DNA of 64,000 bases, taken from the NCBI GenBank assembly GCA_017450465.1, contig JAFSUW010000029.1, forward strand, positions 41,572 through 105,571. Reading direction: 5' to 3'. The notes beneath the pieces are model-generated. The model searched no databases and was not told the origin of the DNA. It was given only the letters and a program-made list of their open reading frames with translations. How positions within the stretch are numbered: position 1 is the stretch's first letter; each line of letters begins with the position of its first letter. Positions 16,624-57,126 of this stretch are shown here, one piece after another. Source of the DNA: Clostridia bacterium. Lineage in GTDB: Bacteria; Bacillota; Clostridia; TANB77; RGIG9151. The position numbers and the translations under genes were made by a program.

Positions 16624-17183
16624 TTCTGAAATGATCCTCGTTTAGCCGAGCGCCGTTTTTTATCACTCTTATTTACTTGTGCTTTGGCAGCTTTTAATTC
16701 ACCTTCAACCTTTTTTAGTTCTTCTTTCAATTCACCAAACTCTTCTATTTCAGATTCGAGTTCGTCGTCCTCGTTATCATCAGCACCACTATCATCAATT
16801 TCAACATGTTTAAGAGGACCTAGTTTATTTTTTCTTTTTCTAGTCTCATAATCCGCTTTATATTTTTGTGCCTTACTAAATTCTCCTGGATCCATTTTTT
16901 CTTGCTTTTTTGTATAACCATTCGACAAAATTATAGTATTATCTCCTGCGAAAAAGTAAAATATCCTAAATATATCTGTCCCAAGTTTAACACGTAGCTC
17001 AAATATACCATCTCTAGCTGGGCTTGAATATGGATATCTCAAGTTGTTTCCTTGTTTATTTAACATTTTTAATCTATCCATTACTTTTGCTGCTTTTCTA
17101 TCAGATAATGTGGCTATATAATCTGCCACAGGCATTTTCCCACTGGATGTATGATAATAAACAAGTTCAAACAACTTTTTCAC
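16620..17183 (-). CDS. type II toxin, RelE/ParE superfamily, Gp49/HigB-like, with a ~70-aa C-terminal extension
   Basis: RYPYSSPARDGIFELRVKLGTDIFRIFYFFAGDNTIILSNGYTKKQEKMDPGEF matches the Gp49/DUF891 pattern. The acidic and Lys-rich tail is atypical. Confidence 0.75.
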   Translation of the reverse strand: MKKLFELVYYHTSSGKMPVADYIATLSDRKAAKVMDRLKMLNKQGNNLRYPYSSPARDGIFELRVKLGTDIFRIFYFFAGDNTIILSNGYTKKQEKMDPGEFSKAQKYKADYETRKRKNKLGPLKHVEIDDSGADDNEDDELESEIEEFGELKEELKKVEGELKAAKAQVNKSDKKRRSAKRGSFQK

Positions 17184-20006: not shown

Positions 20007-20170
20007 TTTTTTATTTCCTCCTTTCGTAGTATAGGAAAATCTCACCGTAACAACAAAAAACTCTTATTACCTTGGGCAATAAGAGTCAAGCTCTATGTTA
20101 TTGCCTCGGTAGGATATAGTTTTAAGATTTCTCTCCTACTTTCTTAGGTAAAATTTTCAAATTTATTAGT
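20007..20170 (-). promoter_or_regulatory. rplJ (L10) leader region, likely autoregulatory
   Basis: 164-nt untranslated region between rplA and rplJ. This is the position of the L10 leader in Firmicutes. The structure itself was not verified. Confidence 0.4.
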
Positions 20171-24658: not shown

Positions 24659-27600
24659 TTATTGCGCTTGTGTAAGATTTCTTAATACTGTTAAACTATC
24701 GCTTGGCGTTACTACTGTACTACCATTGTTATATGTTTGATAATAACTATCAATTAATGTAGTGTTATCTCCTGTACTCATTACCTCTAACGATGGTTTT
24801 GTTGGGTCTGTTGGAACCGGAATCGGTTCTTCAATAGTAGCACTTCCTAAATCAGTTAACTCTTTCTTTGCAGTATACTTTGCAACCAAAGTGGTTTCGT
24901 TACCGCATACATCAGTAGCTTTTATTGTTAATGTGTAACTACCTATTGTATTACCAATTTTAACTGTTACTGTCTTACCTGTTAGGTTAGCTCCAATGTT
25001 TACATTTACTAGATTACTTCCTGACATTTGATAAGAAAGTGCTTTTAAATGTCCTGTATCTTTAGCTATTATTTTAATACTTGCGCCAGTTTCTACTATA
25101 CTACCGCTTTCAGGAGATACGGTTATTGATGGTGGTGTTTTGTCATTAGTTTTGGCTTTAATTGTAAATGTCTTCGTAACGGATGTCTCCTCGCCATTTA
25201 CATTTTTAGCCGTTATCTTTAATGTTGCTTTTCCTTCATCTCTTGGTGCATACGTTGACTGTGTGAAACTTGCTGTGTTCTTTCCATCTATTGTTTTTAC
25301 AGTTCCATTATTCCACGAATAACTTAACGATGCTACGTTTACTTTATTATATGCACTTACATTTATTTTTACATTTGCTTCTGGATCGATTGTACCTCCA
25401 TCTGGTGTTACTGTTACTGTTGGAGGATTAACTGCTACAATTTCTTCCCATACTGCATATAATGTCATGTCTGAACTTATAGAAAGTTTTTCTCCATCCA
25501 CATATCTTACTGTTCCATTATTTGCATTTGTTTTAGTAGTTGCCCAACCTACAAAACTATATCCTGAACGTGTAAATTGGTTATTACTTAACACTTGTGC
25601 TACACCTGATCTAAAGGTTTGATTTGACATTGTGCCTGTTCCACCATTTGAATTAAATGTTATTGTGTAAGTTGCTATTTCTTGCTTACCATAACCGCAT
25701 TTTGTGCAAATTTCATTTTGTATAAAATGTCCCTCTTTTAAGGTAAATTTATCTAATTTACCACATTCACACTTGAAATCTAATTGATGCTCATTTGCAT
25801 CAACGGGCTTAACGTTGATTATAACGTATTTACATGTGTGTGGTAATTTTACGCTTGTGTTTGTTAAAGCTAATTTTAGTAAATAATAATCTGTAAGATC
25901 AATATAACCATTATTATCTACATCACCATATTTCATTTGAATATCTGTAAATCCAATTTCGTTATTTAAGAAACTTTCTAACCATGTTAAATCAGACGAA
26001 TTTACCACTCCATCCATATTAACATCGCCATAAATTTTCTTAACCTCACCACAGGCACATTTACCTGAAGAATATTTATGTGCTTCTGTTTCTTGATAGT
26101 TTATTTCACCACAATTACATGTATACACTATTATATGATTTTCATCACTATATCTTATTAATCCCTTATAATAACCAGATTTTGTACTACCTATACATAA
26201 GTGTGGTAAAATTGTGTTTTTACCACTTCTTAAAGAATATTTAAGAGTTACAAGATCCATTACATCTGTTTTACCATCACTAAATACATCAGCAGCTTTA
26301 GCATTCGCTAATGCAACTTTATTATTAATATAGTTACTAAATGCAATAATATCATCTTCATCTACTTTACCATTGCCATCTACATCACCATATAATACTG
26401 TTTGTTCTGTCGTATTTTTCTTAAATGATACGCTTATTTGATGATTCTTCATAACACCTTCAAAACGATATCCACCTTGGCTTTTATCACTATTAGGTGC
26501 TACAGGTGATACTTCCTTGCTATCTACTGTAAGTTTATCTAGTGTATAGCCATCATTTGCTTTATATGAAAATGTTTGTATTGCACCAGGAGCAACTTTT
26601 ATTTCTCCACTTGGAGTTATTGTACCATTTGCGCCTGCTTTTGCTGTAATTGTATACGTAGTTACTGTTCCTGATACTAAGTTATATGAACCTCCAATTT
26701 TTTGAGAAATTTGACCACAATTTACATATCCATAAAGTTCTATCTCACCAAGCCATGTATCTTTTGTTTCAATAGAAGTTTCTGCTGTATTTGTCCCTGG
26801 CTTAACTTCTTTTGTAACTAATACCCCATTATCAGATCTTAATTCTAAATAAATCTTTTCAATAGGTGCAGTTCCCATATTAGATGCACTAACCTTTATT
26901 GAACTTCCTGGGACTAAATTACCATTTGATGGATTTATATCTATTATTAAGTTATCAGACTTTTTAAATCCAACAATTATTTGGTGTTTTTCTAGAACAT
27001 TTTTAAATGTATATGTTCCTTGTCTTTCTCCACTATAGTTTGCTACTTCATTCCCATCTACTATAATTTTATCTATTACATATCCACTTTTTGCAGTAAC
27101 TGAAAAAGTTTGATCTGTACCTCTTTTAACTTTTACATCTCCGCTTGGTTCTATTGTACCATTTGAATCAGCCCTTGCTGTAATTACATATGAATCCGGT
27201 ACCTTTTGGAACACAGCACACGCTGATACTGTATTAGCAGGCATATTAAATACTAATTCACTACTATTTACACTATATATTTCTATGCCTTTTATATCTT
27301 TAAAACTTACAAATTCGTAACCTTTGCTAGGTACTGCATTAATTGTAACTGTGCTACCCGCTTCATAGTTACCATTACCTTTTACTTCACCACTACCTGA
27401 TTTTGTTACATTTACTTTATATGTAGGGATTTTAATAAACTTAGCTTTTAATGTTACCTTTACTTGTGGCATATTAAATGAAATTTGAGGATTATTTACT
27501 TCACTTACTGTAATACCTTTTACTGACGTCCATGAATCAAAAGTATATCCTGTATCAGGAGTTGCTTTAACTACTACTGCTGTACCTGGTGTAAATTTAC

Positions 27601-28186
27601 CACTGCCTTCAACAGTTCCTCCTTTTGTACCCGATGCTTTTACTTCAAACAATACATTTGACATATCTTTTTCGAAGTTGGCTTTCATTTTTACTTCATT
27701 TTTAGGCATCTTAAATGTAACTTGGCTACTTGTTACATCTATATTTACTCCAGTAACATCTGTCCAACCTGCAAATCTATAGCCACTATCTGCCATAGCC
27801 GTTACAAGTACTTGTGCATTTTCTTCATATTTACCAGCACCAGTTACTTTGCCTTTACCAGCTTTATTCACTTTTAAGCTATAAGTTGCTACTTTCACAA
27901 ATTTTGCCTTTAATGCTACTTTACTAGCAGGCATTGTGAATGTAACTTTATTACTCGTAGTATTAATGGTCACACCACTAACGTTAGTCCATTCACTAAA
28001 AGCATATCCACTTTTAGGAGTAGCTTCTACTGTTACTCTTGCTCCTTCCTCATATGTTCCTGCTCCTGTTACTGTCCCACTACCAGTTTTAGTTACCGCC
28101 ACTTTAAAGCCTGTAGCAGCAAAACTTAGCATCATTAATGACATAATAACAGTAATTGCCATTAATACAGCAATAATCTTTTTCAT
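24659..28186 (-). CDS. large secreted multidomain protein with InlB-B-like repeats, Ig-like domains, a Flg_new/Listeria-Bacteroides repeat and dockerin-type Ca-binding repeats
   Basis: Signal peptide. Repeats of GAGTYEEGARVTVEATPKSGYAFSEWT type, and dockerin-like YGDVDGNGKVDEDD / GDVNMDGVVNSSD. TFNSNGGTGT...GYSFVGWATT matches the Listeria-Bacteroides repeat. Confidence 0.8.
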   Translation of the reverse strand: MKKIIAVLMAITVIMSLMMLSFAATGFKVAVTKTGSGTVTGAGTYEEGARVTVEATPKSGYAFSEWTNVSGVTINTTSNKVTFTMPASKVALKAKFVKVATYSLKVNKAGKGKVTGAGKYEENAQVLVTAMADSGYRFAGWTDVTGVNIDVTSSQVTFKMPKNEVKMKANFEKDMSNVLFEVKASGTKGGTVEGSGKFTPGTAVVVKATPDTGYTFDSWTSVKGITVSEVNNPQISFNMPQVKVTLKAKFIKIPTYKVNVTKSGSGEVKGNGNYEAGSTVTINAVPSKGYEFVSFKDIKGIEIYSVNSSELVFNMPANTVSACAVFQKVPDSYVITARADSNGTIEPSGDVKVKRGTDQTFSVTAKSGYVIDKIIVDGNEVANYSGERQGTYTFKNVLEKHQIIVGFKKSDNLIIDINPSNGNLVPGSSIKVSASNMGTAPIEKIYLELRSDNGVLVTKEVKPGTNTAETSIETKDTWLGEIELYGYVNCGQISQKIGGSYNLVSGTVTTYTITAKAGANGTITPSGEIKVAPGAIQTFSYKANDGYTLDKLTVDSKEVSPVAPNSDKSQGGYRFEGVMKNHQISVSFKKNTTEQTVLYGDVDGNGKVDEDDIIAFSNYINNKVALANAKAADVFSDGKTDVMDLVTLKYSLRSGKNTILPHLCIGSTKSGYYKGLIRYSDENHIIVYTCNCGEINYQETEAHKYSSGKCACGEVKKIYGDVNMDGVVNSSDLTWLESFLNNEIGFTDIQMKYGDVDNNGYIDLTDYYLLKLALTNTSVKLPHTCKYVIINVKPVDANEHQLDFKCECGKLDKFTLKEGHFIQNEICTKCGYGKQEIATYTITFNSNGGTGTMSNQTFRSGVAQVLSNNQFTRSGYSFVGWATTKTNANNGTVRYVDGEKLSISSDMTLYAVWEEIVAVNPPTVTVTPDGGTIDPEANVKINVSAYNKVNVASLSYSWNNGTVKTIDGKNTASFTQSTYAPRDEGKATLKITAKNVNGEETSVTKTFTIKAKTNDKTPPSITVSPESGSIVETGASIKIIAKDTGHLKALSYQMSGSNLVNVNIGANLTGKTVTVKIGNTIGSYTLTIKATDVCGNETTLVAKYTAKKELTDLGSATIEEPIPVPTDPTKPSLEVMSTGDNTTLIDSYYQTYNNGSTVVTPSDSLTVLRNLTQAQ

Positions 28187-28337
28187 AAGTTTATCCTCCC
28201 TTTATTTCCCAAAAAAACATACTCCTATTCATTTATATTATCGCCTAAACAAATTATTTATGCAATGCGAATTAAAATGTTGTTTTATATAGAATATACC
28301 ATTATTTTTTCAATATTTTTACTGATTTATACACAAA

Positions 28338-28367
28338 AAAAGTAGACAAATTTGTCTACTTTTTTGT
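28338..28367 (-). terminator. terminator after the giant surface-protein gene
   Basis: aaaaaaagtagacaaatttgtctactttttt. Confidence 0.65.
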
Positions 28368-28398
28368 ATGAATAATTATAAGTGCTGAAGTATATTCT

Positions 28399-31300
28399 CT
28401 ATCTTGCTGTAACCTCATAGATAACTTTATCTGTAGTTACTCCACAAACACATGCACCATCTACAAAAGTATGAGTATGTGGCAATTCAGTTATTTTTCC
28501 TTCTGCATATGCTCTTATTATTATTGAATCTTCCTTTGTAACTTTTCCGTCACTATCTACGTCGCTATTTGCTGCAACATAATCCATGCTGAAACCTGAT
28601 AATACATTATAGAGTACAAGATTTGCATCATCTACTGTTACTATTCCATCACCATCAGCATCGCCTAGTATCTTAACGAATTTTAAGTATGGTAATGTTT
28701 CATAGTCACTCCATTTTGCTAAATGTCTAGATAATATTACATAATCTAAGTGATTTATCATACCATCTACATTTACATCAGCATTTACTGGATTAACTTG
28801 TTCTATATAACCTTCCCAGTCTTCTAAGGCTCTTATTAATATTACTCTATCTATTGCTGTTACTGTACCATCACTATTTACATCACCATATACAATTGGC
28901 TCTTCTATCATATATGTTATATTTTTTAATATCTTCTTGTTACCAGCTACATCTTTAGCTGTTACTGCTAATTTATGTACTCCTGGTTCTTTTGATATAT
29001 TAGTTGTCACTACAACCTTTGTTTTCCCTGTTACACTTGATACATTAACAATAGTACCTTCGTCCCATTGATATGTAATTTCATCAAGTTTACCAGCATC
29101 TGTTACTGTCATTGTTATTTTGCTTCCTGGTTCTACTATACTACCATGTTCTGGATTTAAGACTATTTCTGGTACTTCTCTATCAGAATTTATTGTATAT
29201 TTTACTGTTAATGTCCTTGAGTTTCCAGAAGTATCTTTTGCAATTATTTTTAGTGTATAGTTTCCATCAGCTGTTGGAGAGTCAAAACTTTTAGCAACTT
29301 CAGTTTTACCCTTTACATCACTAAATGATACTGTTTTTTCATTGTTCCACTGATATGTTAATGATGCTAAGCCAACATTATCAGTTGCTTTAATTGATAT
29401 TGCAACACCTGGTTTAATATTTGATAAAACTGGTGATATTACAGTTATTTCAGGTGACTCTGAATCAAGCTTACTCGTATCTAACACTTCAATATCTACT
29501 GTAAATATTCTACTATTTCCAGCCACATCTGTTGCTACTACTTTAAGTACATGATTTCCATCAGTAGTAGGGGCAGCAAATGTTGTAGTTATAGTTTCTT
29601 TATTAGCTACGCCAGGAACAGATTTAGCAGTACCGTTATCCCATTGATATGTTAATGTATTAAGCATTTTATTATCAGTTGCCTTTATAGTAACATTTGT
29701 GCTTGGCTCTACTGGACCTTTTTTAGGGCTTACTAATACAATTTCTGGTGCTTCTCCATCAATCTTATCTGCATCTAACACTTCATATTCAGTAGTTACT
29801 GTCTTAGCATTTCCTGCAATATCTTTTACTATTAATTTTAATGCATGTTTTCCATTAGCAGTAGGAGCATTAAATGTTGCAGTTACAGTTTCTTTGTTGC
29901 TTACATTTGCTATAGCTACTGCTTTTTCATTATCCCATTGATATGTTAGTGTACTAATTCCAATATTATCAGTTGCTTTTACAGTAATTACTGTATTTGG
30001 CACTATTGGATTTGTTGTTGGGCTTACTATTTCTATTTCTGGTGGAACTTGATCTTGTTTATCCTTACCTAGTACATTATATTCAGCTGTTACAGATCTA
30101 TCATTTCCGCCTAAGTCTGTTGCTAATAGTTTCAGTACATAATTTCCCTCAACTGATGGGGCAGGGAATTTTACAAGTGATGTTAATTTACCATTTACTG
30201 CCATAATAGTTTCAGTTTGACCATTACCCCATTGATATGTGAATGTATTAAGTCCCTTGTCATCAGACACATTTACTTCAAATATCGTACCTGGTTCTAT
30301 TGGATTTGATCTTGGGCTTATTATTTCAACATCTGGTGCTATTGAATCTGTATTTGAGAAAAATTTCTCTCTTAATGTCTTACTTTCACCAAATACTGTT
30401 TCACCTGTAATCAATTCAACAACATCCCAAGTAGGTATATCTAATGTTCTAAACATTAATATTACGAAATTATCCCATGTTAATTTATCTGTTCCATGGT
30501 CAAATAAACTAGCTGTTAATTGTAGCTTTGCAGCCTCTTGTGCATAATTTCCTGGCCATGTGCCTTGTTTTTCAACATATTGGCCTCTACCTGTTATCCT
30601 TATTAAATAAGTTATTGCTTCATTGAATGTAACTTTAGTGGTTGGCTTAAATGTACCATCTTCATAAGCACTCATTATGCCATTTTCCACTGCTAATTCT
30701 ATCCAACCAGCATTCTTGTTACTCTTAATATCTGACATTGTTATGTAATTTTTAGCAACATTCGCTTCTTCCTCAGTAATTCCATACATTTTGCAGATAT
30801 ATTTTGCAAATTCTGCTCTCGTTATAGTAGCTGTTACCTTCTTTGATTCAGATGTACTTACTATACCTAAATCTATCAAATCTTTTAATGAAAACTCATA
30901 GTACTCATTCAAGTCATCACTTAATACATCATAACCAAATTCCTTCATTGCCACATTACCATAAATATCTGTAGCAGTAATGGTTACACCCAAATGTCCT
31001 GTTTTATTCAATACAACATTTACTTGAGCTTTCTTTCTACTATCTGTATAAGTTGATTTTACTGGGTTCTCATTATTTACTTGATATGTTAATTCTTTTA
31101 ATCCACTATCATCTGTTACAGTAAATGCTATAACAGTATTCATTTCTACATCAGAATTATGTTGCATATTTGTAGTAATTACTGGAGCAACCTTCTCTGT
31201 TGGAGGTGGTGTTGTACCATTATCTACTATATACTCAGTTACTAATGTTCTACTATTTCCAGCTAAATCTTCTGCTACTACTTTTAATGCATGAATTCCA

Positions 31301-34300
31301 GTACTACTTGGAGCAGACACAGTGTCTACGATTTCAGTCATTCCTTTTGCATAAGCAAATGTTGAAGAAGGATATGCCTCATCATCCCAATAACATTTAA
31401 CTGTTTCAAGTCCTATGTTGTCAGTTACTTTTACTTCTATATCTGCTCTTGGTTTTATAGGATTTGTCTGACTTACAGTAATTTCTGGTGGTTCTTGTTC
31501 TAATTTGCTTTCATCTACTACTTCATAAGTTACTGTTAACGTTCGACTATTACCCGCCAAATCTGTTGCTACTATTTTTAATGTATGAGTTCCTTCAGTA
31601 CTTGGACCATCCAATGTATATGGTGCTAATCCCTTCAAGCCCTTTACATCAGGTATTGATTTAACCGTACCATTATTCCATTGATATGTAACCGTATCAA
31701 GACCTTGATCTTCATCTACATTCAAATGAATTTTTTCTTTTAGTTTTATTGGGCTTGTTGCTGGAATTACATTTATTTCTGGTGGTGTTATATCATCATT
31801 ATCTGGTTCTGCTGCACTTCCGCCATTACCTACTTCATATGTAATCGTACGTTCAGTTTTATTACCTTTTTTATCTGTAGCAGTTACGCTAACTTTATAT
31901 GTCCCTTCAAGCTTTAATACAAGTTGATTATCCGAAACTTCTTTTGAATATATTACACCACTTGTTCTGCCTTTATCCACTGTTCCTGTACCCATTGCAG
32001 GTTGTCTATTCCAATGCTCTTCTGATGCAACCGTTCCAAAGCCATAGCCTAACCCTTCTGGTGGTGTTACAGAAATCATTATTGAGCCCATTGCTGTCTC
32101 ATCTGTAGCTTTTACAGTTACTTTTGTGCCAACTGGAACTTTACCACCATCTGGAGACGCAGTAATTACTGGGCCTTTATTATCTAGCACATTAAATTTA
32201 CCAGTAAGTGTTGTCTGATTCATTGACATATCTACTACTGTTACAGTTAACTTATGCTCCCCATCTTCAAAAGGTGCCGCAATTAATGCTGTAGTTTTAG
32301 CTACATTAGAAAGGTTCTTTACAGTTTCTATATAGCCATCATCATCCCAGTTGTAAGTTACTTCTTTTATATTATTTGCATCACTTACATTTACTTCTAT
32401 ATTTGATAATGGGAATATTGTACTACCTGTTTTGGTTACTAATTTTGCAGTTGGCTTTGTGTTATCATTTTTATCTACAGCAACCAAATATTTATATGTT
32501 TTACTTGTATTCTTTCCATTAATATCTGTTACACTTATTACAAGGGTTCTTTCAGCTGAATAGTTAGAAGTCTCTGCAAAACCTGTTATTTTCTTAGGTG
32601 TGCCTTCTGCTTCTTGCTCTGCTGCAATGAAACTACCAGCTAACCATACTGCCTTATAACTCTTTATTCCAACATCTGAAGTTATTGTATAATTAATTTT
32701 TTCATTATAACCAACTTTTGAACCATCTTTTGGTTCAACCAAAATCACTGGTTCATTTGACTTAACTTTTTCATTAATTATATAAGTTTCTGTCTTTGTC
32801 CCAGTTGCTGCCTTTACAGTTACTTCTAAAGTATATTCAGCATCTTGTGAAGGTATATTTATTGTAGCTGTTTCTTTTTGAACACCTGGAAATCTACCAG
32901 GAATTTGTCCAGCCGCACCTGACATTCCACCAAATAAACTCCAACTTATACCACTTAAGTATTTACTATCAGTTACTGTCATTGTTAGTGTTTGACCTGG
33001 TTTTACTGTTTTTATATCTGGACTAAATGTTATTGTTATTCCAGCACCTGCCGCACTCACTTCACCACAAACACATACATTATCAATGAATTCGTGTTCT
33101 ACATGTGGTAATGTTGTTCTACCTTCTATATATGCATTAATAAGATTTGAATCAAGTCTTGATAAATTTCCATCAAGGTCTACATCTGCATTTGCAAATT
33201 TAACTATACTATAGTTATTAGAATCTATTGCACCTATTATTAAACTTGCATCATATGTTGTAATTTCACCATCACCATTTGAATCACCATATAAGATTTC
33301 TCCATCTGGCTGTGCAGCCCATGGTGTTTCGCCTTCTTCACTAATTAATTCTTGATATTTAGTTTCTGTTACAAAAATACCTTTTACTGTTACATTTTTA
33401 CCAGGTAATACAAGTGTTAATACACTATCTTTTTGATTCATTAAACCTAATTCTGGTACTTCCCAATGATAGAACACATATCCATTATTTGGTGTAGCAG
33501 TAAATATTAATGTATCGCCTTCCTGAAATTTCTTGTTCCCTTCTACAACTATACTACCTTTCCCTTCTCTTTGAAGAGTTAATTTATATGTAGGAACTTT
33601 TTCGAAAGTTGCCTTTACTTTAGCATTACTCATAGGCATTATAACTGTTGCTTCTGCTGAATTTGGATTATCAATTACCATTCCTTCTGTTGACCATCCA
33701 GTAAATTTGTATCCAGTTTTTGGTGTTGCTGTTATTTGAACAACACTATTTGGATAATATTTACCAGTACCTGTAACTGTTCCACTTCCAACTTTACCAA
33801 CTGTTAATTTATATAACACTTTTGTTGGATCTTTTATGAAGTTAGCTTTCATGCTTACTGCTGTGGCTGGCATTGAAAAAGATATTTCATCTAGTGTAGG
33901 AACTTCTATACCTTTTACATTTGTCCATCCGTTAAAAACATATCCGTCATTTGGGATTGCTTTTACAGTAACAAAATCTCCTTCTTGATACTTACCTGCT
34001 CCACTTACTGTTCCACCTGATGTTTTTGAAACTGAAACTTTGTAAGTAGCAATTTTAGTAAATTTTGCTTTCAGACTTACCTTCTCTCCTGGCATTCTGA
34101 ATGAAACTTGTGAACTAGTTGTATCTATGCTTACGCCAGATACATTAATCCATCCTGTAAAAATATATCCGTCCTTGGGAGTTGCTGTTACAACAACTTG
34201 AGCTCCTTCCTGGTATGTACCTGCACCTGTTACTGTTCCGCTTCCTGTTTTCCCTACGGAAACCTTAAAGCCAGTAGCCGCTGTTGCTGGTACCATAAGT

Positions 34301-34347
34301 TGCAAAATCATTGTCATTGCAACCACTAATGAAATTATTCTTTTCAT
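28399..34347 (-). CDS. giant secreted multidomain protein (1982 aa from MKRIISL): InlB-B-like repeats, dockerin modules, tandem Ig-like repeats, SLH-like domain, C-terminal double dockerin
   Basis: Signal peptide after the MKRIISLVVAM start, which has a GGAGG RBS. At least six ~95-aa tandem repeats with the pattern P.I....P....I.V.ATDN.GL..LTYQW.N......AGN. An SLH-like TRAEFAKYICKMYG segment. Dockerin repeats YGDVNSDGTVTAIDRVIL and LGDADGDGIVTVDD. A C-terminal LPHTHTFVDGACVCG motif. Confidence 0.8.
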   Translation of the reverse strand: MKRIISLVVAMTMILQLMVPATAATGFKVSVGKTGSGTVTGAGTYQEGAQVVVTATPKDGYIFTGWINVSGVSIDTTSSQVSFRMPGEKVSLKAKFTKIATYKVSVSKTSGGTVSGAGKYQEGDFVTVKAIPNDGYVFNGWTNVKGIEVPTLDEISFSMPATAVSMKANFIKDPTKVLYKLTVGKVGSGTVTGTGKYYPNSVVQITATPKTGYKFTGWSTEGMVIDNPNSAEATVIMPMSNAKVKATFEKVPTYKLTLQREGKGSIVVEGNKKFQEGDTLIFTATPNNGYVFYHWEVPELGLMNQKDSVLTLVLPGKNVTVKGIFVTETKYQELISEEGETPWAAQPDGEILYGDSNGDGEITTYDASLIIGAIDSNNYSIVKFANADVDLDGNLSRLDSNLINAYIEGRTTLPHVEHEFIDNVCVCGEVSAAGAGITITFSPDIKTVKPGQTLTMTVTDSKYLSGISWSLFGGMSGAAGQIPGRFPGVQKETATINIPSQDAEYTLEVTVKAATGTKTETYIINEKVKSNEPVILVEPKDGSKVGYNEKINYTITSDVGIKSYKAVWLAGSFIAAEQEAEGTPKKITGFAETSNYSAERTLVISVTDINGKNTSKTYKYLVAVDKNDNTKPTAKLVTKTGSTIFPLSNIEVNVSDANNIKEVTYNWDDDGYIETVKNLSNVAKTTALIAAPFEDGEHKLTVTVVDMSMNQTTLTGKFNVLDNKGPVITASPDGGKVPVGTKVTVKATDETAMGSIMISVTPPEGLGYGFGTVASEEHWNRQPAMGTGTVDKGRTSGVIYSKEVSDNQLVLKLEGTYKVSVTATDKKGNKTERTITYEVGNGGSAAEPDNDDITPPEINVIPATSPIKLKEKIHLNVDEDQGLDTVTYQWNNGTVKSIPDVKGLKGLAPYTLDGPSTEGTHTLKIVATDLAGNSRTLTVTYEVVDESKLEQEPPEITVSQTNPIKPRADIEVKVTDNIGLETVKCYWDDEAYPSSTFAYAKGMTEIVDTVSAPSSTGIHALKVVAEDLAGNSRTLVTEYIVDNGTTPPPTEKVAPVITTNMQHNSDVEMNTVIAFTVTDDSGLKELTYQVNNENPVKSTYTDSRKKAQVNVVLNKTGHLGVTITATDIYGNVAMKEFGYDVLSDDLNEYYEFSLKDLIDLGIVSTSESKKVTATITRAEFAKYICKMYGITEEEANVAKNYITMSDIKSNKNAGWIELAVENGIMSAYEDGTFKPTTKVTFNEAITYLIRITGRGQYVEKQGTWPGNYAQEAAKLQLTASLFDHGTDKLTWDNFVILMFRTLDIPTWDVVELITGETVFGESKTLREKFFSNTDSIAPDVEIISPRSNPIEPGTIFEVNVSDDKGLNTFTYQWGNGQTETIMAVNGKLTSLVKFPAPSVEGNYVLKLLATDLGGNDRSVTAEYNVLGKDKQDQVPPEIEIVSPTTNPIVPNTVITVKATDNIGISTLTYQWDNEKAVAIANVSNKETVTATFNAPTANGKHALKLIVKDIAGNAKTVTTEYEVLDADKIDGEAPEIVLVSPKKGPVEPSTNVTIKATDNKMLNTLTYQWDNGTAKSVPGVANKETITTTFAAPTTDGNHVLKVVATDVAGNSRIFTVDIEVLDTSKLDSESPEITVISPVLSNIKPGVAISIKATDNVGLASLTYQWNNEKTVSFSDVKGKTEVAKSFDSPTADGNYTLKIIAKDTSGNSRTLTVKYTINSDREVPEIVLNPEHGSIVEPGSKITMTVTDAGKLDEITYQWDEGTIVNVSSVTGKTKVVVTTNISKEPGVHKLAVTAKDVAGNKKILKNITYMIEEPIVYGDVNSDGTVTAIDRVILIRALEDWEGYIEQVNPVNADVNVDGMINHLDYVILSRHLAKWSDYETLPYLKFVKILGDADGDGIVTVDDANLVLYNVLSGFSMDYVAANSDVDSDGKVTKEDSIIIRAYAEGKITELPHTHTFVDGACVCGVTTDKVIYEVTAR

Positions 34348-34497
34348 TATACTGCCTCCTTTGTTTTTTCTACGTCTACTATATCGTAACAAATTATATT
34401 TTTTATGCAAATTAATAAAATGTTGAAAATACTATTAAAATGCTATTCTCGTTCAATATGTGAACTAAAAAGTTAAAATTTTTATTAAAAAATTTTT

Positions 34498-34533: not shown

Positions 34534-34610
34534 TGGCGTGCCTGAGACGATTCGAACGTCCGGCCAACGGCTTAGAAGGCCGTTGCTCTATCCTGCTGAG
34601 CTACAGGCAC
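34534..34610 (-). tRNA. tRNA-Arg (anticodon TCT), CCA encoded
   Basis: Reverse complement reads GTGCCTGTAGCTCAGCAGGATAGAGCAACGGCCTTCTAAGCCGTTGGCCGGACGTTCGAATCGTCTCAGGCACGCCA. Cloverleaf with the TPsiC motif GTTCGAATC. Anticodon loop is CTTCTAA. Confidence 0.9.
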
Positions 34611-34656: not shown

Positions 34657-34945
34657 GTACTTTTTAGTTTATTTGAGAAATTGTTGCTTAGTTGAGTAAT
34701 TTCGGCGAAAGAAGGGACGGGGGTAAATGACACAAACAGGTTCAGTTAGCCCCGTCCCACCTCCCGCATTTCCGCCTTTGGCGGATAATGCGAGTGGCGA
34801 ACACACCTCGGAAATCACTCGCCATAAGTTCGAATAGCAAAATCAAAGATTTTGATTCTCACTTATGTTCGCCGCTACAAGTTTGCGAATAACTCTAACT
34901 TTAAATTCTCTCATGTAAACAATAATTTATCTTTCCTCCTATTAT

Positions 34946-35239: not shown

Positions 35240-35301
35240 CTTTTTTCTTCATATATTATTATATGAAAAAAACAAGCTACCGATACACTCGGTAGCTTTA
35301 T

Positions 35302-35469
35302 TTACATCATATCTACTACATCATTCATCACTTTTGTAGCTTTTTTTATCGCATGTTTACTTGGCTTTAACACACTGTCTTTCATCCATTTGCTATTTGT
35401 CTTACTTATCATGCCAACTGTTGTGCCAACTATGCTTCCAATAACCATGCCACGCGTAAAATTATTCAT
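35302..35469 (-). CDS. small hypothetical protein (55 aa), not in the ORF track
   Basis: Manual translation gives MNNFTRGMVIGSIVGTTVGMISKTNSKWMKDSVLKPSKHAIKKATKVMNDVVDMM. RBS is GAGGTGAGG. Confidence 0.4.
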   Translation of the reverse strand: MNNFTRGMVIGSIVGTTVGMISKTNSKWMKDSVLKPSKHAIKKATKVMNDVVDMM

Positions 35470-35525
35470 TTGCCTCACCTCATGTATTTATTTTTTCAAA
35501 ACACACAAAATAAATACATAGAAAA

Positions 35526-37412
35526 TTAATCTGTAAGACTTCCAAATAATTCATCAAATTTCGCTTCAAGTTGCTTTTGAATATCTAAGTCTTCTAAATC
35601 ATCCTTTTCAAGACCGTTTTCAACATTTACCGAACCAACTGTTCCTTTGCCTATTTCATAAGGATTAATTATCCTAAATTCTTTTCTATGATTTAAGCTT
35701 GGGTCATTATGGCTCATTTTATACATTTGACGCTCTTTGTCTTTTGGATGCATACTTACATCGTATTTTTTAGCTTTTATAGGACGCATACCTTTAACCA
35801 TTACGATACTCGTATCAAGTGGCAAACGTTTTAACTCATCAATTGTCATAAGTACTCTTCCCATTGACTGATCAGATATGCTCTGTGACATTTGTCCTGA
35901 ACTGGTTCCAAATATACCGCCTAACTGGCCACTTACTGAATTTTGTTTCTTGGTTATTGTTGCCTCTCCTAAGCTTTTTGATATATACTCACAAGTTTTT
36001 ACTGCTTGGCTACCCAAAAATAGATGCGTATCGCAGTTTGCCATGATGTTTTCGTAAATATCTTTATACATATCCATTAATTGGTCAATACTCTGTAAAA
36101 CTATGCTAATGTTTATATTTCTACTTCTACTTGTACTTAATTTTTGGTTAAAATCAGGAATTTGTCCTGTATTTGCGAACTCATCTAGGAGGAAGAATAC
36201 TGGTATATCAAGCCGTCCTCCATTTTGGTCTGCCATGAAATATAATCTTTGAAGCACCTGCCCAAAAAACATGGTAGGCAAGAAGTTAAATGCACTATGG
36301 CTATCTGGGGTTATAACGAATGTTGCCATTTTCTTTTGCCCCATAGCATCTATATCTATTGAACTACTACCTGTTATAGCAGATATTTCCGGTGTATCAA
36401 AAACGTTTAGCCTTGTAGCAAGTCCTACTAAAACTCCGGCCCTTGTCTTATCTACAGCTAATCTAAACGTTTCATAACTCTTTCTTGCCATACATTCGAA
36501 AGGAAGACGCATAAAGATGTCATCCATCCAGTCAAAATCCTGTCCTGCTCTTACCATAGCAAGGCAGCTTGCAAGCGATTGTTCTTCCTTTGGTGCTTCT
36601 TGTAATAAATAATATATACATGAGTTAAGTAAAGCACGCTCTGCTTGTGGCCAGAATGGGTCTTCGTTTGTTGAACCCTTACTTGTATTTTTTATTAATG
36701 CATCACTTACGATATCTACATCGAGAGTTCCACCAATATGATGTAGAGGGTTATATGAATCACTACAGCTTGGATTTACTAAGTTTATGCAACGAACTTC
36801 ATAGCCATTTTCTTTTAAGAAACCTGCTGCAGTATCAAAGTTTTCACCTTTTGGGTCGGTTACGATATATGAGCCAAGCATTTGAAGCATATTAGGCATA
36901 ATGTAACCTCTTGATTTCCTAGAACCAGCACCACCTATGATTAATACATTTTTATTTATAAATTTATTATCTACTGTTAAATAATTTTTTTGTGCAAGTA
37001 TTATACCTGTATTTGGATTTAATATTTCGTATTGGTCACCATTTGCCCATCCGCTTGAACCATGTTCAATATTTTCATACTCGCCGGTAAAGAACCTAAG
37101 TTTTATTTCATAAGCACCAAAAATAATTAAACAAAAAATTGTAATTGGTGTTACACTACTTAAAAAACCGTGTTGAGCATCTGAGTTATTAATATATTTA
37201 GTAAACGTAAGAGGATTTAAGTTTTTAAAAAAATTAGGCGCAAAAAGAACAGCATCTACAGACGAAATGCTGCTATCTTTTTCTTTTTTATACTGTTCCC
37301 ATTGTGCTTTGGTGGCACCATAAGCACCACCTAAGAACGTTAGGAGTAATAAAAAAACTATTCCATAAAATATATATCTTTGTTTTCTTTTTTTAAGAAT
37401 ATTTAATCCCAT
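35526..37412 (-). CDS. TraG/VirD4-family type IV secretion coupling protein homolog with a degenerate Walker A
   Basis: N-terminal transmembrane segments. GGAGSRKSRGYIMPNML lines up with the VirD4 Walker A/PNLL region but lacks the canonical GxxxxGK[ST]. The FFLLDEFANTGQIP Walker B region is typical of TraG/VirD4. Confidence 0.7.
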   Translation of the reverse strand: MGLNILKKRKQRYIFYGIVFLLLLTFLGGAYGATKAQWEQYKKEKDSSISSVDAVLFAPNFFKNLNPLTFTKYINNSDAQHGFLSSVTPITIFCLIIFGAYEIKLRFFTGEYENIEHGSSGWANGDQYEILNPNTGIILAQKNYLTVDNKFINKNVLIIGGAGSRKSRGYIMPNMLQMLGSYIVTDPKGENFDTAAGFLKENGYEVRCINLVNPSCSDSYNPLHHIGGTLDVDIVSDALIKNTSKGSTNEDPFWPQAERALLNSCIYYLLQEAPKEEQSLASCLAMVRAGQDFDWMDDIFMRLPFECMARKSYETFRLAVDKTRAGVLVGLATRLNVFDTPEISAITGSSSIDIDAMGQKKMATFVITPDSHSAFNFLPTMFFGQVLQRLYFMADQNGGRLDIPVFFLLDEFANTGQIPDFNQKLSTSRSRNINISIVLQSIDQLMDMYKDIYENIMANCDTHLFLGSQAVKTCEYISKSLGEATITKKQNSVSGQLGGIFGTSSGQMSQSISDQSMGRVLMTIDELKRLPLDTSIVMVKGMRPIKAKKYDVSMHPKDKERQMYKMSHNDPSLNHRKEFRIINPYEIGKGTVGSVNVENGLEKDDLEDLDIQKQLEAKFDELFGSLTD

Positions 37413-37446
37413 TAAATATCTCTCTCCTCTTTAGTAACCTAAAAAA

Positions 37447-37947
37447 CTATCTTCCCCTAGCAGCTATTTGTGCTCTTGTCAACTCGTTATTATCTGGATT
37501 GCCACGCTTTACATCTCTACTATCTTCGATTGAAGTAGACTCTATTCCTCTTTCTTCTCTTCCTTGTGCATTTTCAATCATATCTAGTGCTTCTTCCATT
37601 GAAGTTGCTTTTGCTTCTATTTCCAAAGCTACCTCAGCTGACACTGGCGATTTTGATACAAATGCCCAACCAGGACCTATAATCTTTGAACCTCCTTGAG
37701 TATCAACTGTTATAACTGCAACATCTCCAATTGGCATCGGATGTTTTTCTGCAAATTCTTTAGATCTACTTCTAAAATCTTCTAATAGTTCTTTATATGC
37801 CTTAATATCTTGAATTTCTGGTAACCTATCTATTAATTCTTGTGTTAAAGTAGGCATATCACAAACATACATTACCCCTTGATCTTTATCCTTTACTTTT
37901 CCTTCTTCAATTGCAAATGCTCTTGCCCCAATAACAACCTCGTTCAT
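37447..37947 (-). CDS. hypothetical protein (166 aa)
   Basis: ORF closely spaced with its neighbours. No recognisable motifs. Confidence 0.5.
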   Translation of the reverse strand: MNEVVIGARAFAIEEGKVKDKDQGVMYVCDMPTLTQELIDRLPEIQDIKAYKELLEDFRSRSKEFAEKHPMPIGDVAVITVDTQGGSKIIGPGWAFVSKSPVSAEVALEIEAKATSMEEALDMIENAQGREERGIESTSIEDSRDVKRGNPDNNELTRAQIAARGR

Positions 37948-37958
37948 TGTTTAACCTC

Positions 37959-38564
37959 CTAAATTTTCATATTTGCTATATCTTCCATCGACGGACTCAT
38001 CTTTTGACTTCCACTAAATGGTGGATTACTAAATTTTATTGCTAATTCCATTGCTACATAATTTTTATAAGGCACTAATTTATATTTGCCATTAAATCTT
38101 TGTGTTACCTCATCTTTTGAAATTCTAGGAATTACTTGTTCTCCAGTTTCGGCATCAATTATAACTATTTGCCTCTTTGGATTATATTTGAATGTAAATT
38201 CTTTTTCTTCAGTTTCAATTTCTCCCATATTTGTATATTGGAGATGCACAGTTTCACTATCTGCAATAAACTGATTGTCATGTAACTTTCCGTGTCCTAT
38301 AACACATCTGTTTTTAGCTAGTGATAAAACGATGATGTTTAATACATCTTCGTCTGTAGGAACACTAAATGTTTTTAGGACTTTCCCATTTTCCTCAAAC
38401 TGTGTACACTCTAATTTATCTAACATGTATAGAGGTAGTGTATCCCATTTTTCTGGTGAAGTCTCATTTACTAAGAAAGCTACTACATTTACTCCTGCTG
38501 GTTGTGGTACTGTGAATTCTTGTCCTTCTAAAAAACTCATACCGTACTCCTCCTTGGTATACAT
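37959..38564 (-). CDS. hypothetical protein (201 aa)
   Basis: ORF with an RBS. No recognisable motifs. Confidence 0.5.
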   Translation of the reverse strand: MYTKEEYGMSFLEGQEFTVPQPAGVNVVAFLVNETSPEKWDTLPLYMLDKLECTQFEENGKVLKTFSVPTDEDVLNIIVLSLAKNRCVIGHGKLHDNQFIADSETVHLQYTNMGEIETEEKEFTFKYNPKRQIVIIDAETGEQVIPRISKDEVTQRFNGKYKLVPYKNYVAMELAIKFSNPPFSGSQKMSPSMEDIANMKI

Positions 38565-51423: not shown

Positions 51424-52584
51424 TTATAGTCCTTGTAATAATTGTAATACTTGATTTGGTTGTTGATTTGCTTGTGCAAGCATTGCTGTAGCTGTTTGGT
51501 TAAGTATACTATCTTTTGTATATGTAACCATTTCAGCTGCCATATCAACATCACGAATACGTGATTCAGCAGCTGTTAAGTTTTCTTCACTCGCAGCTAA
51601 GGCATCTAAGGTATATTCCAACCTGTTCTGATAAGCACCAAGATCGCCTCTTGCGCTTGTTAATATATTTAACGCATTATCTATTGCATCTAGAGTATCA
51701 CATGCTTGATCTACGTCATCTATACTTAAATATGTAAGTCCAAGTGCAGCTGAACGCAAGTCTGGCATTTCTATTGTAAGAGCTCTATCTATTGAATTTG
51801 CACCAATTTGAAGGTTTGTCTTTCCTCCAGGTGATGTTTGTATCTTAAGTCCACTAATACTTGCAAGTGTCATATCCTTAAAGTTAAACTTAATACCAAC
51901 ATTTGAGCCATCTGCACCTTCAAACCTCATAAATCCAGAATATTTTGCATCTGTAATTGGGCCTGTTGTACTTGTTGCTGTATGTGTAGCTCCTTGTATT
52001 GAATAAGTAACTGTTACAACACCATCGCTATCTACACTAAAAGTATATTCTGTTTCATTCTCTGCGCCTGCAACATCTAATGTTTTTATTCCTTCAATTA
52101 AATCATATCCACCATCGGCATTTGCTTGATAAACAGTTGAATTAGCCTTGTCAGCTGACATTCCAAGTGTACCTTTTAATAAGTACGTACCATTAAATGA
52201 AGCTGTTTCTGCTATTCTATCAACCTCATCCCTAAGTTGTACTATCTCGGCTGTTATTGCTTCTTTTTCACCTGTTGATAGTATACCATTCATAGATTGA
52301 ACTGAAAGTTCTCTCATTCTTTGGAAAATATCACTAACTTGTTGTAATGCACCTTCTGCTGTTTGAATCATTGATATACCATCTTGTGCATTAAGCTGGG
52401 CCTTTTCCAAACCTCTTATCTGTGCTCTCATCTTTTCACTAATAGCAAGACCTGCAGCATCATCGCCTGCACTGTTAATTCTTAAGCCTGATGATAATTT
52501 CTCAAGTGAGCTTACTGTTCCTCTCTGGTTTACTACCAATTGATTTTGGGCATTAATTGCCGAAATGTTGTGATTAATCCTCAT
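51424..52584 (-). CDS. flagellin (386 aa, divergent paralog)
   Basis: MRINHNISAINAQNQL N-terminus and ...QPNQVLQLLQGL C-terminus. Confidence 0.95.
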   Translation of the reverse strand: MRINHNISAINAQNQLVVNQRGTVSSLEKLSSGLRINSAGDDAAGLAISEKMRAQIRGLEKAQLNAQDGISMIQTAEGALQQVSDIFQRMRELSVQSMNGILSTGEKEAITAEIVQLRDEVDRIAETASFNGTYLLKGTLGMSADKANSTVYQANADGGYDLIEGIKTLDVAGAENETEYTFSVDSDGVVTVTYSIQGATHTATSTTGPITDAKYSGFMRFEGADGSNVGIKFNFKDMTLASISGLKIQTSPGGKTNLQIGANSIDRALTIEMPDLRSAALGLTYLSIDDVDQACDTLDAIDNALNILTSARGDLGAYQNRLEYTLDALAASEENLTAAESRIRDVDMAAEMVTYTKDSILNQTATAMLAQANQQPNQVLQLLQGL

Positions 52585-52678
52585 GATTAATTCCTCCTTA
52601 TTTTTCTACCGTCTTGTCATTCCATGATCTTAAAGCTTTAAACATCCATAATAATGTCTTAAATCCTTTTCAAAAACA

Positions 52679-52705
52679 TTATCGTATTTTAGCGAAAATA
52701 CTTTA
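52679..52705 (-). promoter_or_regulatory. candidate sigma-D promoter for flagellin 51424..52584
   Basis: On the minus strand, TAAA-N15-TACGATAA. Confidence 0.4.
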
Positions 52706-52838
52706 TAGTTTTTTTAAACTTTTTTTGGTTTTTTAAAAAAAATATAGTGCATTTCCGCATAAACAGGGGGTTTTAATATTATTAATTTTTTTATTAAAAT
52801 ATTAACCCGCCTGTTTATACTTAAAAAGCACCATATAA

Positions 52839-53948
52839 TTATTGCAATAATGATAAAATTGTTTGAGGCTGCTGATTTGCTTGAGCAAGCATTGCCATAG
52901 CTGATTGGTTAAGTATACTATTCTTTGTATACGATACCATCTCACTAGCCATGTCTACATCACGAATACGTGATTCTGCATTGGTCAAGTTTTCATGTGT
53001 AGCCGTCAAGTTCTCAACTGCATACTCCATTCGATTCTGCATTGCTCCTAATACGGAACGTTGGGCCGATACTTTATCTATTGCATAATCGATTGCAATT
53101 AGAGTATTGTTGGCTTCTTCATTAGTTGCAATTGAAATAGTCATCTTTTCTGAGTTTGCTGATAAACCTGTAGAGCTCATATCATCAATACCAATAAATA
53201 ATAAATCTTCTTCATAAGTATTGGCACCAATTTTGAATACTGCTCTTTTGCCATCATCAGATTCAGTTTGTGTTGTAATAGTTGCGCCATTTAATTCTGA
53301 TGCAGCAATTGGAGTTTTACCAAGATTTATTTCAATTCCTGCGGATGCAAATCTGACAACTCCGCTTATTGTCTGACCTATAGTAAGTTCTTCTTTACCA
53401 TCTGTTCCCCAGGTGATTTTTGCCTTACCATCTGTCACCTCTATCGAATACGTTGTACCTTCTTCGGCATTTGATACACTAACTGAATACTTCTCATCTA
53501 CTGTGGTTGAATCCAGTTGTGTTGCAAGAGAACCATCTAGTATTTTCTTTGAGTTAAACGTACTAGATGTTGCAATTCTGTCTATCTCATCTCGAAGTGT
53601 TGCAAGTTCTGTCGAAACAGAAACTCGATCATCTTCTGTTAATACACCTGTATTTTGTGATTTAACTACTAGTTCTCTCATTCTCTGCAATATATCAGTA
53701 GTTTGTTGAAGAGCACCTTCTGCCGTTTGTATCATTGAGATACCATCTTGGGCATTGTTTTTAGCTTGTGCTAAACCTCTAATTTGTGCTCTCATCTTTT
53801 CACTGATTGCAAGTCCCGATGCGTCATCTGCCGCACTGTTAATTCTTAAACCTGACGATAGTTTCTTTATAGAACCCTCAACTCTTGATTGGTTCCCTGA
53901 TAATTTGTTTTGGGCATTAATAGCCATTATATTTGTATTTATTCTCAT
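52839..53948 (-). CDS. flagellin (369 aa)
   Basis: MRINTNIMAINAQNKL...[16 protein letters not shown]. Confidence 0.95.
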   Translation of the reverse strand: MRINTNIMAINAQNKLSGNQSRVEGSIKKLSSGLRINSAADDASGLAISEKMRAQIRGLAQAKNNAQDGISMIQTAEGALQQTTDILQRMRELVVKSQNTGVLTEDDRVSVSTELATLRDEIDRIATSSTFNSKKILDGSLATQLDSTTVDEKYSVSVSNAEEGTTYSIEVTDGKAKITWGTDGKEELTIGQTISGVVRFASAGIEINLGKTPIAASELNGATITTQTESDDGKRAVFKIGANTYEEDLLFIGIDDMSSTGLSANSEKMTISIATNEEANNTLIAIDYAIDKVSAQRSVLGAMQNRMEYAVENLTATHENLTNAESRIRDVDMASEMVSYTKNSILNQSAMAMLAQANQQPQTILSLLQ

Positions 53949-54115
53949 TTTACATTCCTCCTTGAATTTTTAAGAAAACCCTTCCGTGGGCTTCCTAGAG
54001 AGCTTTTTACCTCGGCCCTGAGTTTAACTCTCTAAAACCTTCATCGTCATTTTTTTTCATTACTTAACATTTATTTAAAAAATTTTTTAGAGAACAAGTT
54101 TATATTTAAAAATAA

Positions 54116-54143
54116 AAAGGAGGCCTAAGCCTCCTTTTTATTT
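54116..54143. terminator. terminator downstream of flagellin 54148..55254
   Basis: aaaaaggaggcctaagcctccttttt. Confidence 0.65.
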
Positions 54144-54147
54144 TTTA

Positions 54148-55254: not shown

Positions 55255-55311
55255 AATAATTCCTCCTTGAATTTATTAATTTCTTAACCTCCATGTAACC
55301 TTATCTCTTAA

Positions 55312-56136: not shown

Positions 56137-56198
56137 TTTACATTCCTCCTTGAACTATAAACATCTTCCCTGACTTATTAAAGTCATGAGCCTATATT

Positions 56199-57023: not shown

Positions 57024-57064
57024 ATACATTCACCCTCTTCCTTGAAGGATTATGTATGAGGCTC

Positions 57065-57112: not shown

Positions 57113-57126
57113 ATACGACCTACTTA

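Follow-up and report, generated by a model that had tools for sequence, protein, structure and literature searches.

The closest described relatives of the protein considered here are the conjugative type IV coupling proteins (T4CPs) of the CD1115/PcfC group (PcfC of pCF10), which have two N-terminal transmembrane segments, a nucleotide-binding domain with an all-alpha insert, a Walker B motif and the motifs PNxL and YNPL. We found the same features in a 628-aa protein encoded in a stretch of 64,000 nucleotides from a Clostridia bacterium (GenBank assembly GCA_017450465.1, contig JAFSUW010000029.1, positions 41,572 to 105,571; hereafter the window), where its gene belongs to an operon (the cassette) with the genes of a 193-aa partner protein, a middle open reading frame (ORF) and a small protein. 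However, the plasmid-borne T4CPs of the CD1115 family are only 31-35% identical to the cassette T4CP, and their genes have PrgI and VirB4 genes downstream in 4/4 cases and PcfB/DUF3801 and/or relaxase genes upstream in 3/4. The cassette T4CP is further distinguished from the CD1115/PcfC group by a private tail motif, by a private partner predicted to be a beta-sandwich, by its chromosomal location and vertical inheritance and, in the clade of the window, by a P-loop reading GGAGS[R/K]KS.

Partial parallels exist in other systems. In the TraD-TraM pair of the F plasmid, a C-terminal extension of the T4CP recruits a soluble specificity protein (PMC7434980), and in the type IV coupling complex of Legionella the tail of the T4CP DotL recruits adaptors (PMC7280309). 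Integrative mobilizable elements (IMEs) and mobilizable plasmids encode a T4CP without a type IV secretion system (T4SS) of their own (PMC7434980; PMC5357655), but they carry a relaxase, an oriT and an integrase and they move, whereas the cassette lacks all of these features and keeps its synteny from one species to another. The DNA translocases FtsK and SpoIIIE belong to the same ATPase superfamily and are likewise motors anchored in the membrane, with a housekeeping role on the chromosome, and the nucleotide-binding domain of T4CPs resembles FtsK (PMC7434980). However, the cassette protein matches VirD4/TraG models and not FtsK, has no gamma domain, and comes with a dedicated putative adaptor and a tail. 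In the literature that we searched there is no description of a chromosomal T4CP/DnaJ/partner cassette, of the FDELFG motif, of the partner domain or of a fixed P-loop variant; the protein family is known, while the chromosomal cassette family with these three attributes is absent from the searchable literature.

The results presented below reveal a functional, selected chromosomal operon of a T4CP and a partner that is unlinked to any visible conjugation machinery. We suggest that it is a domesticated, vertically inherited coupling-protein module standing outside any conjugative element, an interpretation that we regard as probable, if well short of certain. An earlier note on this DNA, made from the sequence alone, had offered two possibilities, a decayed integrative element and a domesticated T4CP-like ATPase with a chromosomal role. 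Our analysis supports the second, and extends it to the sister group of T4CPs that have a canonical Walker A motif.

Identity of the coupling protein and its Walker A variant

The T4CP of the window matches the Pfam family T4SS-DNA_transf (PF02534; 3.9e-65, 220.9 bits against a cutoff of 20.1), TraG-D_C, and the NCBIfam model NF045973, "VirD4-like conjugal transfer protein, CD1115 family" (417.3 bits, cutoff 250). A match to TrwB_AAD_bind (1.3e-19) covers residues 153-544, with an all-alpha domain between Walker A and Walker B, and hydropathy peaks at about residues 14-36 and 82-108 correspond to a two-segment N-terminal membrane anchor. The motifs PNML (residues 173-176) and YNPL (220-223) are present, as are the Walker B motif FFLLDEFAN, whose D410 and E411 do not vary among the T4CPs of either chromosomal group or of the plasmids, and the downstream sensor region with STSRSR (426-431) and LQS (439-441). 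The TraG/VirD4 architecture, the PNLL-like region and the Walker B motif recognized in the earlier note are thus borne out. The protein is identical to MBQ7668870.1, from a metagenome-assembled genome (MAG) labelled "Clostridia bacterium", a record that carries the generic label "conjugative DNA transfer family protein".

The Walker A P-loop motif has been defined for T4CPs (PMC7434980), and its canonical form, G-x(4)-G-K-[ST], is not found in the window protein. Alignment confirmed that the site reads GGAGSRKS, as had been noticed before, with Arg in place of the second Gly. The word "degenerate", which had been used for it, is misleading, since Arg or Lys at position 165 is fixed in a clade and the other ATPase motifs are invariant. 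A homolog search with the T4CP returned a tight clade at 56-89% identity, followed by a drop to 48% or less. Every complete member of this clade (P0001-P0034) has GGAGS[R/K]KSRG, and all 86 more distant matches retain Gly before Lys, nearly all of them as GGSG[S/A]GKS and one as GGSGTGKT (P0066); GGSG[S/A]GKS is present in every complete locus of the canonical chromosomal group. In a neighbour-joining tree of 100 sequences with 30 bootstraps, the variant clade was monophyletic in 30/30 replicates, its sister, the canonical chromosomal group, was itself recovered in 23/30, and both were split from the plasmid T4CPs in 30/30.

Only 14 positions show fixed differences between the variant and canonical groups, two of them in the P-loop (S162A and G165R), and 136 positions are invariant across both, including K166, S167, D410, E411, R429 and Q440. 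The two halves of the nucleotide-binding domain are about equally conserved in both groups, with means of 0.82-0.83 in the variant clade and 0.83-0.84 in the canonical group. In the unsaturated pair L003/L004 (locus numbers refer to the cassettes of relatives), the ratio of nonsynonymous to synonymous substitutions (dN/dS) is lowest in the T4CP (0.031), followed by the partner (0.050) and the middle ORF (0.080), and reaches 0.24 in the small gene of 55 codons; purifying selection on the T4CP and the partner is strong. Because the clade is monophyletic, the other motifs are invariant and dN/dS is low, we conclude that G165R/K arose once and was kept together with the remaining catalytic apparatus; it is a fixed, clade-defining substitution rather than a degeneration. 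A Gly-to-Arg/Lys change fixed in a clade is a rare natural experiment at one of the most conserved positions of P-loop NTPases.

The clade of the window differs from the canonical group in four respects: R/K165, the absence of an adjacent DnaJ-like gene, the absence of a perfect promoter and, in its main subclade, the addition of a small protein. It could be argued that nucleotide binding is lost through G165R/K and that the protein has become a membrane scaffold, without catalytic activity, that serves the partner and the small protein. The loss of the neighbouring gene and promoter and the gain of a small membrane protein would fit a changed function, nearly all P-loop NTPases have Gly where the protein has residue 165, so that ATP binding might be lost, and conjugative T4CPs with a mutated Walker A lose their function (PMC7434980). 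However, a dead site should relax, whereas the six catalytic residues named above are invariant and the domain is as conserved as in the canonical group; that only Arg or Lys is tolerated at 165 suggests, moreover, a selected role for a positive charge. A dead scaffold is therefore a doubtful explanation. Judging from the catalytic residues that it retains, the motor of the window clade has probably been retuned and would still depend on nucleotides.

Genomic context and vertical inheritance

A comparison of synteny, one of the checks proposed in the earlier note, showed that the cassette recurs with housekeeping flanks, which were present in all loci inspected. The gene recN lies upstream in L002, L003, L083 and L085, for example. 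The cassette stands between recN and ispG in L002 and between recN and tig-clpP-clpX in L003, and the order in L083, L085 and L086 is prs-nadK-recN followed by the partner, middle, T4CP and small genes. A rhodanese gene comes directly after the cassette in L085 and L086, and in L083 a gene for an alpha/beta-hydrolase intervenes. T4CPs with a canonical Walker A, which are carried by at least 75 species-level Clostridia genomes, are likewise chromosomal and located among housekeeping genes, not ICE genes (ICE, integrative conjugative element). Relatives are encoded in at least 548 stretches of species-representative genomes, and the best 80 of them are all of the chromosomal cassette type, nearly all from MAGs whose labels name uncultured Clostridia or related Firmicutes.

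A distant subclade of the variant (L001, L006 and L007) occupies other sites, after mreBCD-PBP in L001 and after uvrC in L007, and has accessory genes of its own, with products of 129/144, 148/149 and 148/208 aa upstream and of 233-242 aa downstream. The MAGs of L001/L005 and L007 (JBLMYQ010000068.1 and JBLNBO010000005.1) are labelled "Deltaproteobacteria bacterium" and "Ignavibacteriales bacterium"; their loci are typical of Firmicutes (mecA, maf-radC-mreBCD beside the variant T4CP), and the labels are probably wrong.

For a census of neighbours, all ORFs of 86 non-redundant loci were clustered. The partner was found at 79/86 loci by clustering and at 81 by hidden Markov model (HMM), and was followed in frequency by a CbpA-type DnaJ-like protein (72/86), a Mur ligase (55/86), SbcD-like (48/86) and SbcC-like (45/86) proteins and a peptide release factor (34/86). 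The identities of the neighbours were confirmed with Pfam on examples, those of the SbcC-like and release-factor clusters resting on precomputed Pfam labels. The DnaJ-like neighbours have an intact HPD motif in 55/56 full-length copies and no zinc finger. Pairwise identity of the T4CPs is correlated with that of the neighbours (Spearman rho 0.74-0.89), and the T4CP is more conserved (59-62%) than the Mur ligase (49%), SbcD (51%) or SbcC (39%). The correlated divergence and the higher conservation indicate that the T4CP behaves as a vertically inherited host gene, and the existence of a large vertically inherited family without a linked T4SS argues that the motor has been exapted for a host function. 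This has a practical consequence for genome annotation, in which T4CPs serve as markers of mobile elements: in gut Clostridia, the cassette would give systematic false positives in the detection of ICEs and IMEs.

That no relaxase, integrase or VirB4 accompanies the T4CP, as had been remarked before, was confirmed in two ways. None was detected among 40 ORFs of the window scanned with Pfam, a scan that did not take in individually a few short ORFs and most of the paralogs of about 275 aa, the size of flagellins. The ORFs scanned are housekeeping genes or other usual genes of a chromosome, among them folD, uppP, rluD, a sigma factor, flagellar genes, spoIID, spoIIR, an rqcH-like gene, rsmB, an aminoacyl-tRNA synthetase and genes for giant dockerin surface proteins. 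In addition, tblastn with 16 conjugation proteins from four conjugative plasmids (MobC, relaxase, DUF3801/PcfB, PrgI, VirB4, SLT hydrolase, FtsK-like protein, recombinase and others) gave zero matches in the window and 91 loci (1.73 Mb in total), while the plasmid T4CP used as a control had matches in all 92 sequences. The only gene of a mobile-element type seen in the window encodes a protein of 187 aa in which a Gp49/HigB-like toxin domain was recognized (1.9e-16; 16620-17183, minus strand). Upstream of the rplJ-rplL region, at 20046-20166 on the minus strand, there is a leader of the ribosomal protein L10 type (Rfam RF00557, 75 bits), which confirms that ordinary core chromosome is present about 15 kb from the cassette.

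It had also been proposed that the locus is the remnant of a decaying integrative conjugative or mobilizable element beside tRNA-Arg. The tRNA gene is indeed 915 nt from the stop codon of the T4CP, in agreement with the distance of about 1 kb given in the earlier note, and annotation gives the protein a conjugative function and no other. Elements that target tRNA genes typically insert at the 3' end of the gene. However, the cassette is located 5' of the tRNA gene, and the cassettes of relatives are found at non-tRNA sites with housekeeping synteny. Two probes from the 3' end of tRNA-Arg (27 nt and 18 nt, with up to 3 mismatches) matched only the tRNA itself in the 64 kb, and no tRNA-derived family was found among the 20 largest of 45 direct-repeat families in the window, so that no att repeat was detected there. 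The GC content is 0.29-0.36 across the cassette, similar to that of the flanks, with a flat profile. Together with the intact motifs and a dN/dS of 0.03 for the T4CP, these findings leave a decaying element with next to no probability. An origin from a phage was considered and rejected, as PHROGs had no match of note (nothing for the cassette proteins beyond a head-decoration match of the partner at 0.097) and the viral contigs searched did not contain the cassette T4CP family, their best T4CPs being of the distant conjugative type with 31-37% identity.

The partner protein and the C-terminal tail motif

The earlier note described the two genes upstream of the T4CP as unknown. Of the three proteins submitted to HMM searches only the T4CP was matched, and the 193-aa and 166-aa products have no match in Pfam, NCBIfam or PADLOC; the two are nevertheless not equivalent, the former being an obligate partner and the latter occupying a hypervariable slot. 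Homologs of the partner were found by BLAST immediately 5' of the T4CP gene in 73/75 outgroup loci, and the partner is an obligate, family-wide component. No hydrophobic segment was found in it, and from its AlphaFold2 model (pLDDT 81.8, pTM 0.75) it is predicted to be a cytoplasmic all-beta protein with an Ig-like sandwich. Residues F9, P14, F58, N120, R123, Y161 and E165 of the partner are invariant. The possibility that it is a PcfB/DUF3801 protein was rejected, there being no Pfam or NCBIfam match and an hhalign probability of 0.2% against a DUF3801 protein. Relatives of the partner were absent from the 72,556 plasmids searched.

The chromosomal T4CPs end in a tail with the consensus D[IL]QK[EQ]LEAKFDELFG, which in the distant variant subclade takes the form ELEK[RK]F[DN]ELFNIV; the four plasmid T4CPs compared do not have this motif. 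The core F[KRDEQN][DE][LI]F lies within the last 45 residues of 85/86 chromosomal T4CPs. Elsewhere the core is rare: six-frame ORFs totalling 570,905 residues contain it only 9 more times, and the T4CP tail is its sole site in the window.

A search with the partner profile against 1.84 billion representative proteins gave 318 matches, including 23 long proteins that embed the whole domain (P0343-P0441 range; 470-1050 aa, with a partner beta-domain of about 175 aa that has no Pfam model). In each of the ten fusion proteins scanned with Pfam (10/10), TIR domains, Sel1 repeats or a protein kinase domain were recognized. The tail motif is present 58-81 residues N-terminal of the partner domain in 12/23 fusions, for example as IDNELESKFEELFG, ADEELEAKFEELFG and VHNELLECFDELFG, and in 0/127 standalone partners; by a rough estimate, a motif upstream of the domain is expected by chance at about 10^-3 per protein. 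Since the motif and the domain are the only two elements common to cassettes and fusions, we infer that they bind each other, in trans between T4CP tail and partner in the cassette, and in cis or head-to-tail in the fusions. The ELExKF[DE]ELFG motif plus the domain look like an undescribed module of bacterial conflict or signalling proteins. If so, they would constitute a new peptide-domain interaction pair that is present also in TIR-domain conflict proteins.

These fusions raise the question of whether the cassette itself is a defence or conflict module, for instance one for the detection or expulsion of plasmid or phage DNA that enters the cell. One fusion gene (L096, 8001-10313) lies in an island of TIR-TPR, kinase and TIR-LRR (NLR-like) genes, and the hypervariability of the middle ORF would also be in line with such a role. 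However, PADLOC-DB gave only a weak match of mads_8 (4.6e-4) to the Walker B region of the T4CP and none for the partner, middle or small proteins, and the cassette was absent from the plasmids and viral contigs searched. Its fixed syntenic position among housekeeping genes and its co-divergence with them are also unlike typical defence islands. We therefore consider a defence function quite improbable.

Possible function of the module

Returning to a domesticated module of the host, a working scheme can be drawn by analogy with TraD-TraM and the DotL adaptors. The ATPase would assemble at the membrane as a hexamer, like other T4CPs, its conserved C-terminal tail helix (LEAKFDELFG) would recruit the partner, and the partner would present a client to the motor and so give it client specificity. 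A protein is favoured over DNA as the putative client, since TIR/Sel1/kinase proteins use the partner domain as a module for protein interactions and since, in the canonical group, the most conserved neighbour is a gene with an intact J-domain. In its fullest form the scheme would describe a T4SS-independent machine of gut Clostridia, in which a chromosomally fixed membrane T4CP hexamer with a tail-docking beta-sandwich adaptor receives, and perhaps exports, protein clients (which could include the TIR/Sel1/kinase proteins), aided by Hsp70 and J-proteins, the window clade being a variant with an in-cis Arg/Lys P-loop. This fullest form is unlikely to be right. If it were, monoderm bacteria would have a minimal pathway of translocation or targeting that has so far gone unrecognised. 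The cassette is also a natural test case for a long-standing question in the "shoot-and-pump" debate, namely whether a T4CP is able to function in the absence of a channel.

Several observations, besides the near-universal Gly at position 165, weigh against this interpretation. The docking of the tail to the partner is a Rosetta-stone argument, and a third factor that binds the motif may be involved instead. In the distant variant subclade, the partner HMM gives no match. The DnaJ-like gene is transcribed separately and is non-adjacent in the clade of the window, and the frequent DNA-repair neighbours (sbcCD, recN, uvrC and pcrA) could equally indicate a DNA substrate. Finally, the search for conjugation genes reached 10 kb to either side of each locus and the 64 kb of the window, and a T4SS elsewhere in the genomes would lie outside this range.

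The last point bears on the possibility that the protein is an orphan T4CP that serves a T4SS elsewhere, either chromosomal or on co-resident ICEs, as an alternative substrate receptor, perhaps delivering the middle protein or proteins with the partner domain. In other bacteria, proteins of the TIR and Sel1 types count among the classic effectors of T4SSs. Only about 20 kb is seen per locus, ICEs are abundant in gut Firmicutes, as published abstracts indicate, the characterised T4CPs all work with a T4SS channel, and some mobilizable plasmids encode their own T4CP and borrow the channel (PMC7434980). However, the content of ICEs is sporadic, whereas the cassette shows vertical inheritance and conserved synteny with housekeeping genes across more than 80 species-level genomes. 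No T4SS gene was found in the 1.73 Mb of flanks, the family tail is absent from the four plasmid T4CPs and the partner from the plasmids searched, and the perfect sigma-70 promoter described below argues for constitutive expression under host control. We therefore regard an orphan T4CP working for a distant T4SS as rather unlikely.

Organization and expression of the operon

The coordinates of the cassette and of the features within it are given in Table 1.

Table 1. Features of the cassette and its surroundings (positions in the window)
Feature	Position	Strand	Remarks
Partner gene	37959..38540	-	193 aa; the listed ORF runs on to 38564
Middle ORF	37447..37947	-	166 aa, acidic (isoelectric point 4.7), hypervariable
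T4CP-like ATPase	35526..37412	-	628 aa, VirD4/TraG type, relative of the CD1115 family
N-terminal membrane anchor of T4CP	37089..37373	-	Two hydrophobic segments and the loop between them; from hydropathy
Variant Walker A of T4CP, GGAGSRKS	36912..36935	-	Residues 160-167; R165 in the second conserved Gly position
Walker B of T4CP, FFLLDEFAN	36171..36197	-	Residues 406-414; D410/E411 invariant
C-terminal tail motif of T4CP, DIQKQLEAKFDELFG	35541..35585	-	Residues 610-624; family-specific; proposed docking site for the partner
Small protein gene	35302..35478	-	58 aa from GTG; 55 aa from ATG at 35469 more likely
Intrinsic terminator closing the operon	35274..35298	-	10-bp stem with 5 G-C pairs, then a T-run
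tRNA-Arg(TCT)	34534-34610	-	915 nt from the T4CP stop codon

The genes follow each other at intergenic distances of 11, 34 and 47 nt, and the small gene ends 3 nt before the terminator. The position of the terminator directly after the small gene indicates a four-gene operon of partner, middle ORF, T4CP and small gene, with the rhodanese gene as a separate transcription unit. An operon of the T4CP with proteins of 201 and 166 aa had been proposed, and the corresponding ORFs were found where they had been placed; the fourth gene and the terminator are additions, and the first protein has to be shortened. In the listed ORF of 201 aa, a strong Shine-Dalgarno sequence, AAGGAGGAG, is located 6 nt 5' of Met9, and the homologs have about 190 aa, so that the partner most likely starts at Met9 and has 193 aa. 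The rhodanese gene and the small gene had both been noticed as neighbours of the T4CP, and both are present, but the small gene is part of the operon.

The middle slot is occupied in 77 loci by an ORF of 50-202 aa with almost no sequence conservation. Its dN/dS of 0.08 in a close pair shows that it is still under purifying selection, and it is a candidate regulator or cargo. An Arg-rich C-terminal "secretion signal" on the middle ORFs was considered and rejected, the final residue being R in 33/77 and the sequences being otherwise too variable for a motif. The small protein consists of a Gly-rich hydrophobic segment (Gly-zipper) followed by a basic helix, with an isoelectric point of 10.5, and its sole family match, to DUF3042, is weak (E=0.0095). 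Its homologs are located 3' of the T4CP in L002, L003, L004, L083 and L085; it is confined to the main variant-Walker-A subclade and absent from the canonical loci.

In 67/79 loci (in the series L008-L082, L087 and L090), including essentially all canonical ones, a perfect 12/12 sigma-70 promoter, TTGACA-N17(18)-TATAAT, is present about 80-105 nt 5' of the partner gene, compared with 0/395 shuffled controls. In L090 a terminator follows directly 3' of the T4CP gene. The promoter before the partner and the terminator after the T4CP define a core operon of partner, middle ORF and T4CP, with the DnaJ-like gene and sbcD as separate conserved neighbours. The maintenance of perfect consensus promoters across species is unusual and suggests control by an operator or by the leader, and a subset of the leaders have a CTATG...CATAG hairpin abutting the ribosome-binding site. 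Heat-shock control was considered and rejected, no CIRCE operator being found in the 67 leaders.

Other features of the window

Between the rhodanese gene and tRNA-Arg, a GC-rich non-coding patch (34690-34870) is predicted to fold into a very stable multi-stem structure (minus strand, -78 kcal/mol and z=-7.8; plus strand, z=-6.2). It has no match to an Rfam family and no copy in any fetched locus, and it is a candidate structured RNA of unassigned kind.

Two giant surface proteins of 1175 and 2003 aa are encoded at 24659-34410 on the minus strand. The former contains six InlB B-repeat domains and dockerin type I modules, and the gene of the latter has internal DNA repeats of 294 nt. Both proteins suggest a cell surface of a cellulosome type or an adhesive one.

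A tandem array of about 12 flagellin paralogs, an unusually large repertoire, occupies 51424-63770 on the minus strand, downstream of flaG-fliD-fliS-flgN. Its members have 386, 369 and 368 aa, followed by nine of 274-277 aa, and a C-terminal fragment of 146 aa is encoded at 58017-58457. Five of the members were confirmed as flagellins with Pfam, and the others are assigned by their size and spacing.

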